Assembly (NCBI GenBank): GCA_903832635.1 | Contig: CAILCF010000002.1 | Location: 7,665-71,664, forward strand | Reading direction: 5' to 3' | Source: an uncultured bacterium | Lineage (GTDB): Bacteria; Patescibacteriota; Saccharimonadia; Saccharimonadales; Saccharimonadaceae | Length of the DNA: 64,000 bases | Shown: positions 2,075-2,217 of the stretch, piece by piece | How positions within the stretch are numbered: position 1 is the first letter of the stretch | Layout of the letters: every line of letters starts with the position of its first letter | Translations under genes and position numbers: made by a program | The notes under the pieces: generated by a model | The model's input: the letters and a program-made list of their open reading frames with translations, nothing else | Told to the model about the DNA's origin: nothing | Database searches by the model: none

Positions 2075-2217
2075 TTTGAACTCACGACGTAGATTTTGCC
2101 CCCAGCAAAATATACAAGTCGTGAGGTCGCGTAGTGCAGCGAACAAAAAATGTGTTCGCCGTCCGGCGAAACATATTTTTAAGAGCAAACGGAGGAGCGG
2201 AGCGATAGTCTCACTAC
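2075..2217 (+). repeat. tRNA-linked T-arm-matched module, family 2 (Lys-TTT copy)
   Basis: Antisense T-arm copy tttgaactcacgac (13/14 to the tRNA), sense copy gtcgtgagg, core tagtgcag...aaaatgtgtt-tip-aaacatatttt...aaacggaggag, then agtctcact (9/9 to the tRNA T-loop/T-stem 3' half). Confidence 0.6.

Follow-up and report, generated by a model that had tools for sequence, protein, structure and literature searches.

Behind an intact tRNA-Lys(TTT) gene, the window (the whole 64,000-nucleotide stretch of DNA analyzed here) carries a ~155-nt module that is one copy of an apparently undescribed family of protein-free folded modules sitting in spare tRNA T-arms of Saccharibacteria. In this copy (copy A), the T-loop of a spare T-arm copy is interrupted between nt 57 and 58 by a conserved ~80-nt core, and the working tRNA that adjoins it is intact. 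We consider it about an even bet (probability roughly 0.5) that the module is a non-coding, T-loop-targeted insertion or attachment module acting as a folded single strand. If so, the core hairpin would be the recognition structure for a trans-acting recombinase or transposase working on that strand, the T-loop, whether in a tRNA gene or in a copy of one, would be the target, new units would enter beside the working tRNA and displace older units downstream, and the tRNA-matched arms would be copied or gene-converted from the target.

The literature yielded no description of such modules. Only tRNAs matched Rfam 15 at the gathering threshold, and at E ≤ 10 the interval 2015-2350 gave trivial hairpin matches only, far below threshold. 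Blastn in "distant" mode against phage and plasmid collections gave no match to the module. In IMG/VR, the family 1 core had no match, and the family 2 core had a single chance match, on a giant-virus contig within a helicase-like gene.

Layout of copy A and its family

The features discussed below are as follows; R1 is a covariance model built from 54 family members, the window's three copies included.

1944..2020, + strand: tRNA-Lys(TTT), intact (ARAGORN; Rfam tRNA, 72.3 bits)
2018..2060, + strand: hairpin opening with the encoded CCA, made of an A-tract, a GC hairpin, and a T-tract (sequence)
2061..2088, + strand: inverted copy of tRNA nt 46 to about 73 (sequence comparison)
2075-2088, + strand: motif tttgaactcacgac
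2089..2117, + strand: P1 cap hairpin, gtagattttgc-cccca-gcaaaatatac (sequence)
2118..2125, + strand: direct copy of tRNA nt 46-53, gtcgtgag (left flank of the insertion point)
2126..2206, + strand: family 2 core (R1 match at 2118-2221; covariation)
2132-2139, + strand: motif tagtgcag
2145-2180, + strand: AT hairpin, with an extra cgccgtccggcg at 2157-2168
2157..2169, + strand: private 13-nt insertion cgccgtccggcga at the AT-hairpin tip (absent from the other 68 copies)
2187-2197, + strand: motif aaacggaggag
2207..2215, + strand: right flank of the insertion point, agt ctcac t, a direct copy of tRNA nt 58-66
2216..2345, + strand: extra spacer, missing from L047, L066, and L009 (local alignments; depth and contig breaks in four DNA runs)
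2368..2376, + strand: comEC promoter element TGTTATACT, extended -10 type (sequence; 6 nt before the ATG at 2383)
30228..30374, − strand: family 2 copy C (subtype 2b), behind tRNA-Arg(TCT) (R1 match at 30230-30328)
45327..45472, + strand: family 2 copy B, behind tRNA-Arg(TCG) (R1 match at 45379-45472)

The tRNA-Lys(TTT) gene is the source of copy A's tRNA-specific arms. The hairpin that follows it looks like its intrinsic terminator (terminator-like matches at 2032-2049, on both strands) and stands at the centre of a palindrome made of the tRNA 3' half and an inverted copy of that half; a similar hairpin lies 3' of the tRNA in the module-less loci L078 and L086 as well. Within the inverted copy, 2075-2087 matches the reverse complement of tRNA 1990-2002 without a mismatch, and 2061-2074, which matches the T-stem 3' strand and the acceptor, has decayed. 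The cap hairpin is family-borne and variable in sequence, yet always a hairpin, the orthologues carrying different but self-complementary caps, and gtcgtgag at 2118..2125 pairs with 2080-2088 to give helix P1. The core ends in a small variable 3' hairpin region that is shortened to ggagcggagcgat in copy A, a 10-nt deletion in the alignment with L047. The right flank is likewise truncated in copy A and extends through the whole acceptor in L087 and L068. The spacer beyond it is probably debris of older modules; 2212-2266 is weakly similar to the right end of family 1, 2310-2345 is common to the window and L087, and 2245-2330 is a repeat found on further contigs of the same genome.

The preliminary description of 2075-2217 had recognized the same motif order as in the two Arg copies, and each motif that it named was located, as was the capping helix attttgc-cccca-gcaaaat, inside 2089-2117. 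Its reading of all these as motifs of one family holds for the core, which is shared, but not for tttgaactcacgac, gtcgtgag, and agtctcact, which are copies of the local tRNA T-arm; in the Arg copies, Arg T-arm sequences stand in their place. For annotation, such T-arm-like motifs are thus tRNA fragments and not family motifs. The structural comparison with the Arg copies that it had proposed gave a shared fold, with R1 scores of 72.2 (copy A), 90.4 (copy B), and 73.0 bits (copy C) that are partly so by construction because those copies helped build R1.

The core pattern AAAATGTGTT..ACATATTTT occurs three times in the window against none in 100 shuffles, and its spacing to GCAG and to AA[A/G]CGGA is 7 nt, fixed in all three copies. 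A same-strand tRNA ends about 115-130 nt upstream in 44 of 61 pattern matches. R1 located 69 copies behind 20 anticodon classes, a count that leaves out one convergent-gene artefact (tRNA-Val, L011); in Saccharibacteria, family 2 thus follows at least 20 tRNA classes, and the genes downstream are unrelated or convergent, as with copy C, which faces a convergent gene. Family-wide, identity of the inverted copy to its tRNA is 80-95% at nt 46-56 and 27-63% over the acceptor. In the left direct copy identity drops from 75-95% to 4% past T-loop nt 57 and in the right direct copy it rises to 63-95% from nt 58, which makes for a sharp insertion point. About 60 copies agree both in the boundary at nt 46 and in the insertion at 57/58, and units measure about 150-190 nt overall.

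The displaced tRNA copy is not contiguous, since the core splits it at nt 57/58 and the inverted copy precedes it. It begins at nt 46, the exception being a distal full-length tRNA-Met pseudogene with a mutated anticodon arm in L029. Full tRNA 3' ends are repeated in L002, L015, L028, L048, and L052, and the last four keep the full acceptor, the CCA, and a second, different terminator hairpin at the right flank. Module termini share only TCG(G)C...G(C)CGA (3-5 bp), and no T-loop bases appear to be duplicated at the junctions, which differ by 1-3 nt; the left junction keeps TTCG even where the tRNA has TTCA (L011).

Two further readings of the module were rejected. The only ORF in it (2040-2228, 62 aa) was set aside as coding sequence because orthologue indels of 13 and 10 nt break its frame. 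AAGTGCAG and CAAGCGG are similar to Pasteurellaceae uptake signals, but a role as DNA-uptake sequences was dismissed as the motif counts (RAGYGCAG, 4 observed vs 4.4 expected; CAARCGGA, 6 vs 4.1) show no enrichment outside modules.

The core fold

The core folds as a rod-like hairpin that pairs TAGYGCAG with CAARCGGAGG and contains three purine-rich internal loops and an AT helix of 12-13 bp. Across its 16 pairs, 97.1% of cells are paired vs 89.8% in shuffles, a score reached in none of 500 shuffles, and compensatory changes occur at six pairs: (14,79), (19,74), (24,70), (28,67), (29,66), and (31,65). The existence of a conserved core fold is thus supported. The diverged copies L068 and L069 keep it through paired deletions, and the core is near-identical between genomes whose ComEC proteins are 66-79% identical, a conservation at about the level of a functional RNA. 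One G.U pair is invariant, and G.U-type intermediates outnumber A.C ones both in the core (20 vs 10) and in P1 inverted-copy changes (19 vs 3), an excess that we count as support for a single-strand signal. P1 itself shows 1 compensatory change vs 61 single changes, and its arms may therefore simply be gene-converted by the tRNA; pairing in P1 and copying of the tRNA cannot be separated.

The preliminary description had argued that variation confined to helix tips is what a functional structure would show. The fold is indeed conserved, with variation concentrated at helix tips; in orthologous tRNA-Lys copies, the first-helix cap and the small 3' hairpin vary in sequence and length and the remainder is near constant. 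That the fold acts as RNA is at most a possibility. Under that reading, the module would be a structured RNA, transcribed either from a start of its own or by transcription running on from the tRNA, the core would serve as a small or protein-binding RNA, and the arms would link it to the cognate tRNA (e.g., in processing, in quality control, or as a decoy). We regard this as unlikely. It would account for the covariation-backed fold with its conserved purine-rich internal loops, for the very high conservation across species, and for two features of the core's own strand, namely the invariant G.U pair and intermediates that are more often of G.U type than A.C. Moreover, one metatranscriptome contig of a relative spans the tRNA and the hairpin and reaches 2100, and core-bearing contigs at depth 6-11 occur in three or four RNA-labelled runs, though these are directionless and may reflect DNA carry-over. 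RNA-labelled runs also cover the tRNA of relatives.

The position and the behavior of the module fit an RNA less well. It sits behind a terminator-like hairpin, has no promoter-like site in or before it, and finds no Rfam match; relatives lack it at the same tRNA, and different core families share the slot and abut one another. The core is also inverted relative to the tRNA and the unchanged scaffold in 6 of the 69 copies (L010, L031, and L044 behind Met; L005 behind Ser-TGA; L051 behind Ser-GCT; and the second L037 module), and across these three tRNA contexts both orientations are kept equally well.

A second alternative does without any dedicated enzyme and assigns the module no function. 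The terminator hairpin would be the site of palindrome-driven template switching that leaves a direct-inverted-direct triplication (like a tandem inversion duplication), and gene conversion via the conserved T-loop bases would then spread a selfish hairpin from one of these pseudo T-arms to another. This passive origin matches the direct-inverted-direct layout with a hairpin at each junction, the decay of the outer palindrome parts, and arms that follow the tRNA without independent compensatory change; the 1-3 nt junction variation and the TTCG kept in L011 would fit microhomology at G53-C56 and A58-C61. However, the cap hairpin at the second junction is foreign to any tRNA and common to modules of different tRNAs, the boundary and the insertion point are constant in those about 60 copies, compensatory changes and the paired deletions of L068 and L069 maintain the core fold, and modules bound cargo cassettes. 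We hence judge the passive reading quite improbable.

The tRNA-Lys/comEC site among relatives

At the orthologous site between tRNA-Lys and comEC, relatives differ in what they carry. The site is empty in L061, L071, and L081, holds family 2 in the window, L047, L009, L066, L087, L068, and L074, holds a family-1-like core in the same scaffold in L060, L065, and L082, and is reduced to a remnant in L083. In the ComEC tree, the empty L061 is sister to the filled L074 (98/99) and the filled L068 is sister to the module-less L078/L080. Relatives have gained, lost, or exchanged the module at one and the same site; between tRNA-Lys(TTT) and comEC, the window, L087, and L047, at the least, inherited it from their common ancestor. 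Copy A has since acquired its private 13-nt insertion, and its small 3' hairpin has become 10 nt shorter; both changes spare the paired core.

The extra GC tip on the AT hairpin, which had been noted before, is present, and none of the other 68 R1 matches has any insertion at that tip. The 13-nt insertion is palindromic (self-complementary), and a source copy was found neither elsewhere in the window nor in 87 loci, except for the 9-mer GCCGTCCGG at 2251-2259. It turns the AT hairpin terminator-like on both strands (matches at 2155-2170, + and −), with TTCGCCGTCCGGCGAA and ACATATTTTT on the + strand and their mirror image on the − strand; terminator-like sites in the region number 6 vs 0.4 in shuffles, all of them counted by consensus match only.

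The location of the module between the tRNA and comEC had raised the possibility that it contributes to regulation upstream of comEC, as a leader or regulator, and the GC tip of copy A makes a terminator-like hairpin that could block read-through into the gene. This possibility now seems close to negligible. comEC has a promoter element of its own, downstream of copy A; in 13 orthologous loci, whether or not a module is present, TGnTATACT lies 6-8 nt before the comEC ATG, too close for a leader to fit between. The module-less L061 and L071 share this promoter and comEC; the GC tip is confined to one copy; and modules of this kind stand behind at least 20 tRNA classes, in one case facing a convergent gene (copy C). 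By this comparison, the module does not drive or gate comEC, and comEC should not be annotated as under its control.

Arrays, cargo, and comparison with known systems

Modules also occur in arrays and beside cargo. In L037, a forward module adjoins the tRNA and is followed by an inverted-core module, and the latter is the sole module in L010 and L031. In L016, two whole units flank a 58-aa ORF, their hairpin, inverted-copy, and cap segments being visibly near-identical, and in L029 an Mrr-like nuclease gene lies between two repeats of the core 3' end, the T-stem copy, and the next 40 nt, the distal core lying inside the T-loop of the tRNA-Met pseudogene. Different core families take the same slot. 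No recombinase or transposase linked to modules was found when cargo ORFs were scanned and other loci were compared by tblastn with the large serine recombinase of L067; the latter, the only one seen, belongs to a tRNA-Lys locus without a module, and neither the other loci compared nor the window contain a relative. We saw no free, circular, or excised form of the module and no clear target-site duplication at modules, and contigs from four lake DNA runs of this population showed no alternative form of 1966-2298, although contigs lose rare variants. These points speak against the insertion or attachment reading, as does the RNA-like conservation of the core.

The paired arms also allow a reading of the module as a programmable guide (RNA or single-stranded DNA). 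A segment antisense to T-arm nt 46-57 and a sense segment of nt 58-66, placed around a protein-binding scaffold, would steer a recombinase or nuclease to one particular tRNA gene, at its T-loop, like IS110 bridge RNAs, which read both target strands. An antisense and a sense arm do flank the exact insertion point in each module, a conserved structured scaffold lies between them, and the tRNA-specific segment is flanked by family-specific cap and core. Yet the sense arms need no guiding role, because they are merely the two sides of the interrupted T-arm copy; moreover, no enzyme gene was found beside any module and there is no likeness to Rfam guide RNAs, and inverted cores would uncouple the scaffold from the arms. 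A guide therefore strikes us as distinctly doubtful.

Returning to the insertion or attachment module, a bolder form of it would be a previously unknown mobile system, which we put forward tentatively and hold to be rather unlikely. Here, a conserved rod-like ~66-nt hairpin, as folded single-stranded DNA or RNA, would be inserted in tRNA T-loops by a trans-acting enzyme, the tRNA that was hit would template the antisense and sense arms, each event would restore the working tRNA, and modules would then become landing pads for defence and other cassettes. If the insertion or attachment reading holds, most tRNA genes in a phylum of ultra-small, naturally competent bacteria would be flanked by a conserved, folded, protein-free module that leaves the tRNA intact and marks entry sites for cargo, a restriction-type nuclease included. 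Integration platforms built on tRNA genes would thereby gain a new mode, some of the odd intergenic sequence in these reduced genomes would be accounted for, and Saccharibacteria genetic tools would have a natural docking site. The well-supported core fold is a concrete object for testing a binding enzyme or an RNA function.

The T-loop is an established "sublocation" at which genomic islands, prophages, and gene-less remnants (cis-mobilisable elements) integrate, in tandem arrays in, e.g., the Prochlorococcus tycheposons (10.1101/2020.12.28.424599), and tRNA gene fragments are footprints of such integrations (PMC9897764). Like the module, these elements leave an intact tRNA beside a displaced partial copy of its own 3' part, break in the T-loop, stack in arrays with the newest unit (for the module, presumably) beside the tRNA, carry cargo between repeats (defence-type genes included), and vary in presence among relatives. 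As at an att site, agtctcact at 2207-2215 repeats tRNA nt 58-66 while the tRNA is intact; an internal integrase gene and a contiguous tRNA copy to the 3' end are both absent from the module. Unlike tRNA islands and prophages, the module is about 150-190 nt long without an integrase, adds an inverted T-arm copy and a cap hairpin, holds in its displaced T-loop a structured core in either orientation, and serves at least 20 different tRNAs with one core family. Archaeal tRNA introns at non-canonical T-loop positions and split tRNAs offer another parallel, with an insert of ~80-100 nt at a precise T-loop position and, for the introns, related insert families spread among different tRNAs. However, the interrupted copy of the module lacks tRNA nt 1-45 and cannot yield a tRNA, an uninterrupted tRNA adjoins it, and the host is a bacterium.

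Integron attC sites recombine as folded single strands and bound cassettes. They resemble the module in being imperfect palindromes with structure conserved beyond sequence and with strand-specific features, in lying at cassette boundaries, and in that new units join at one fixed array end, as new modules would. Their R box (GTTRRRY/RYYYAAC) is only loosely echoed by the module T-arm (GGTTCG/..GAACC), and the P1 feet (..GAAC.../...GTTC..) derive from the T-arm and misfit the R''/R' consensus RYYYAAC...GTTRRRY. Integrons further have an IntI-type integrase and attI, neither of which was seen at module loci, whereas modules are tied to tRNA genes and mostly lack a cassette. MITEs and hairpins moved by HUH enzymes (REP/REPIN with RAYT; IS200/IS605-derived palindromic elements) are, like the module, small, non-coding, hairpin-forming, and multi-copy, occur in both orientations, are conserved across species, and have a GTAG-like motif at the structure foot. 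As expected of a MITE-type element, the module has 69 copies, 6 of them inverted, and both filled and empty sites (the latter in L061, L071, and L081). Unlike such elements, it targets the tRNA T-loop and copies target sequence, has no clear target duplication and terminal repeats of only 3-5 bp, comes with no partner transposase identified, and is seen only beside tRNA genes. Should the mobile-system reading prove true, the module would be an element that homes to tRNA genes, encodes no protein, copies its target, and serves as a platform for cassettes, which would set it apart from integrase islands, integrons, and IS-derived MITEs.

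Layout of the copy behind tRNA-Lys(TTT)

The family 2 module behind tRNA-Lys(TTT) (2075-2217; copy A) was compared with the copies behind tRNA-Arg(TCG) (45327-45472, plus strand; copy B) and tRNA-Arg(TCT) (30228-30374, minus strand; copy C), and each motif that the preliminary description had listed for copy A was found in the sequence in the order and at the place claimed.

Features of copy A and of the comEC start (positions in the window)
1944-2020: tRNA-Lys(TTT)
2018-2060: hairpin opening with the encoded CCA, 3' of tRNA-Lys(TTT)
2075-2088: tttgaactcacgac
2089-2117: cap hairpin
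2118-2125: gtcgtgag
2132-2139: tagtgcag
2145-2180: AT-rich hairpin, with an extra cgccgtccggcg at 2157-2168
2187-2197: aaacggaggag
2207-2215: agtctcact, module end
2368-2376: TGnTATACT element before comEC
2383: ATG of comEC, the DNA-uptake gene

The pattern of the core, a shared stretch of ~80 nt, occurred three times in the window and not once in 100 shuffles, its spacing to the neighbouring motifs was equal in the three copies, and a covariance model from 54 family members, with all three copies among its training sequences, scored them at 72.2 (copy A), 90.4 (copy B), and 73.0 bits (copy C). Three end motifs that had been read as belonging to the family proved to be pieces of the adjoining tRNA: 2075-2087 exactly matches the reverse complement of tRNA positions 1990-2002 (variable-loop end, T-stem 5' strand, and T-loop start), 2118-2125 repeats tRNA nucleotides 46-53, and 2207-2215 repeats nucleotides 58-66, while copies B and C carry the corresponding Arg tRNA sequences in the same places. 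Further, 2061-2088, on the 3' side of the CCA hairpin, repeats the entire tRNA 3' half in inverted and partly decayed form, and thus makes up one long palindrome together with the tRNA end and the hairpin.

A folded core in a spare T-loop across Saccharibacteria

One core-pattern scan of species-representative genomes yielded 58 loci, nearly all from Saccharibacteria, with a same-strand tRNA ending ~115-130 nt upstream in 44 of 61 core-pattern hits, and the covariance model placed 69 copies behind 20 anticodon classes, a count that leaves out one convergent-gene artefact (tRNA-Val in L011; L-numbers denote loci fetched from other genomes or metagenomes for comparison). The layout was rigid, with the inverted copy at +52 to +60, the left direct copy at +85 to +97, and the right copy at +160 to +190. 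Identity of the left direct copy to the tRNA was 65-95% from nucleotide 46 to the third T-loop base, 56% at nucleotide 57, and then 4%, while that of the right copy climbed to 63-95% starting at nucleotide 58, which places the core in the T-loop of a spare T-arm copy, between nucleotides 57 and 58. At several loci (L015, L028, L048, and L052), the right copy continues across the acceptor and the CCA and leads into another terminator hairpin, distinct from the first. The family 1 core (GTGAGAACTGCC...GGGGTCGCGGAACGTGACCA) occupies the same slot and scaffold behind tRNA-Pro, tRNA-His, and tRNA-Lys(CTT) of the window.

Several further repeats and tRNA fragments were seen near tRNA genes. A 53-nt repeat that begins with the hairpin TTTAGAAGGACGGACCTTCTAAA lies just past the modules of tRNA-Pro(TGG) and tRNA-Arg(TCG) (20780-20832 and 45475-45527; 87% identity between the two), and the hairpin also follows modules in L036, L046, and L058. 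A pseudo 5' part of tRNA-Lys(CTT) (gggccagtagctcagctg) stands at 45574-45700, behind the original promoter and upstream of the intact copy of this tRNA; its D-loop is interrupted by an insert that also carries the inverted D-arm 3' side (gctctaacc), making it a 5'-side counterpart to the 3'-side modules. In L085, the stretch +40 to +75 past tRNA-Lys(TTT), behind the terminator, holds the inverted 3' half of another, Gln-like tRNA (ggttcgaatccctccatccct on the other strand), not of the local Lys.

RNAalifold and a mutual-information scan agreed on the core structure. Base pairs join the two "single-stranded" motifs (G18-C75; Y19-R74 with UA 28, CG 18, and UG 5; C/U14-G/A79 with CG 36 and UA 16), followed further in by G23-C71 and Y24-R70 (CG 21, UA 14, UG 10) and then by the AT helix of 12-13 bp, whose outer pairs covary (AU 27 / GC 18; AU 39 / GC 7 / UA 4) and whose G.U pair is invariant. 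The preliminary description had held that variation is confined to helix tips, and this now has statistical backing: 97.1% of cells were paired (89.8% in shuffles), and the observed covariation was reached in 0 of the 500 shuffles. Versions shifted by one to three columns paired at 31-67%. The core thus forms a rod of ~66 nt, a hairpin interrupted by three conserved internal loops rich in purines, although the invariance of its inner seven pairs is partly imposed because the collecting pattern required them. Behind the rod comes a small hairpin region whose length varies (GGCTTTAGCC, GGCCGAAGGCC, GGATTTATCC, and others). The AT helix is kept by paired deletions in the diverged copies L068 and L069, and copy A retains all pairs but (28,67), which is C.A throughout the Lys-TTT lineage.

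Among variable core pairs, G.U-type intermediates numbered 20 versus 10 of A.C type (four of the latter from the single Lys-TTT lineage), and in P1, the helix formed by the inverted and left direct tRNA copies, changes limited to the inverted copy gave 19 G.U-type versus 3 A.C-type pairs. These counts, drawn from non-independent copies, together with the invariant G.U pair, point to folding as a single strand (for the core its own strand, for P1 the tRNA-sense strand) and would suit RNA and single-stranded DNA alike. P1 showed only one tRNA-independent compensatory change versus 61 single changes, so its conservation may come from copying rather than from selection.

Inheritance and remodelling at the tRNA-Lys(TTT)-comEC site

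The local gene order of the window (upstream gene, tRNA-Lys(TTT), module, comEC, and yebC) recurs in L047 and L009, whose ComEC is 75% and 66% identical to that of the window, respectively. Scanning metagenomes with the tRNA-Lys(TTT) 3' end added 28 further loci, in which every site state was represented.

States of the tRNA-Lys(TTT)-comEC site
Empty (tRNA, plain terminator, promoter, comEC): L061, L071, L081
Family 2: L066, L087; diverged copies L068/L070, L074, L069
Family-1-like core in the same scaffold: L060, L065, L082
Remnant: L083
Cargo genes instead of a module: L078/L080 (DUF488), L086

In the ComEC tree, filled L074 is sister to empty L061 (98/99), module-less L078/L080 are sister to filled L068 (100/98), and L087 and L047 group with the window, all three with family 2. 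The module has therefore been inherited in the window's clade, yet gained, lost, or replaced among close relatives. Within this clade the tRNA is identical and the core near-identical save for indels, whereas the terminator hairpin, cap hairpin, and spacer differ far more.

Copy A alone, among all copies found, has a 13-nt insertion at the AT-helix tip, and since the insertion is itself palindromic the helix is lengthened, not broken. Nine bases of this GC tip (GCCGTCCGG, 2158-2166) recur 93 nt downstream at 2251-2259, and no other source was found in the window or the first 87 fetched loci. The repeat at 2251-2259 sits within an apparent degenerate family 1 right end, and the tip may have been templated locally. 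Also missing from copy A are 10 nt of the small 3' hairpin that L047 has (GGAGCG[gaacaaagtg]GAGCGAT). The ~125 nt after copy A are missing from L047 and L066 and shared in part with L087, part of them weakly resembles the family 1 right end, and we read this spacer as debris of older modules. Within this spacer, depth over 2245-2330 was 2-5 times that of the flanks in four lake metagenome DNA runs, and contigs of 8-19 kb begin or end inside it, which marks it as a repeat found elsewhere in the same genome on other contigs; the window holds no second copy.

The suggestion that the module contributes to comEC regulation was not supported, unlike the structural part of the same interpretation, the conserved fold. 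TGnTATACT lies 6-8 nt before the comEC ATG in 13 orthologous loci (the window and 12 others) with or without a module, the module lies upstream of this promoter element, a leader would have no space, and the same promoter-comEC arrangement occurs in L061 and L071, which carry no module. comEC itself appears leaderless or almost so. At most, the private GC-tipped hairpin, which matches the terminator consensus on both strands, could halt stray read-through.

Behaviour of the modules and comparison with known systems

An inverted core sits in an otherwise normal scaffold behind tRNA-Met (L010, L031, L044), Ser-TGA (L005), and Ser-GCT (L051), conserved as well as forward cores, and orthologous tRNA-Met loci carry forward cores (L037, L028, L033). 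In the L037 array, a forward module adjoins the tRNA and is followed by the inverted-core module that is the sole module in L010 and L031, indicating that the new unit came in on the tRNA side. Family 1 ends follow family 2 modules in L054 and L026, and cores of family 1 and family 2 lie directly side by side in L029.

Modules also bound genes. L016 has a 58-aa ORF between two whole units (CCA hairpin, inverted copy, cap, core, and right copy), near-identical by eye in their hairpin, inverted-copy, and cap segments. Between these Asn modules (reverse complement, about 3310-3830), a degenerate tRNA-like 3' end (ggcggttcgcaatgcgtc...gagcca) immediately precedes the second unit; behind this 3' end comes a near-copy of the first CCA hairpin. 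L029 (reverse complement 2237-4215) has a Mrr-like restriction endonuclease gene (386 aa) between two repeats, each a family 2 core 3' end, T-stem copy, and 40 nt beyond, and the distal repeat falls within a full-length tRNA-Met pseudogene that has the core in its T-loop.

At other tRNA-Lys loci, the tRNA is immediately followed by a gene pair that includes an AAA_21/AAA_15 ATPase, or by the gene of a large serine recombinase. In L062 and L079, the ATPase (411 aa), of the type known from abortive-infection and OLD-type defence systems, and a 177-aa partner are the first genes downstream of tRNA-Lys(TTT), in place of comEC and before yebC; in L067 (794-1993), the recombinase gene (Resolvase and Recombinase domains) lies right behind an identical tRNA-Lys(TTT) with another terminator and no module, and no relatives of it occurred in the window or the other loci fetched by then.

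Orientation, arrays, and cargo all suit DNA units that enter tRNA T-loops and serve as cassette boundaries, and fit a co-transcribed RNA appendage poorly. That the module is a functional RNA is unlikely, though one metatranscriptome contig of a relative extends to 2100 and core-containing contigs, directionless and without a DNA control, reach depth 6-11 in three or four RNA-labelled runs from other organisms. We put the DNA-module reading at about 0.5.

Anatomy, the precise T-loop slot, fold, site polymorphism, both orientations, tRNA-side array growth, and module-bounded cargo are established for the modules. Mechanistically, a trans-acting enzyme would recognise the folded core and a T-arm hairpin and insert or recombine single strands, the arms being copied or gene-converted from the target tRNA. 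A hairpin-loop target fits the T-arm, which can form a hairpin on either DNA strand, and the T-loop core TTCGAA, palindromic in many tRNAs, which would permit both orientations; the inverted Met cases carry TTCAAA, not the palindromic TTCGAA.

Copy A thus belongs, as an inherited and slightly remodelled copy, to a family of tRNA-linked insertion or attachment modules that appears to be undescribed. Rfam and the phage, plasmid, and viral collections gave no matches, and we found no description of such modules in Saccharibacteria in the literature. Closest in concept are three systems: the tRNA T-loop sites where islands and prophages integrate, together with the gene-less remnants and tandem arrays of such elements; the attC sites of integrons; and hairpin repeats that single-strand transposases mobilise. 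The modules share behaviour with all three and fully match the defining features of none.
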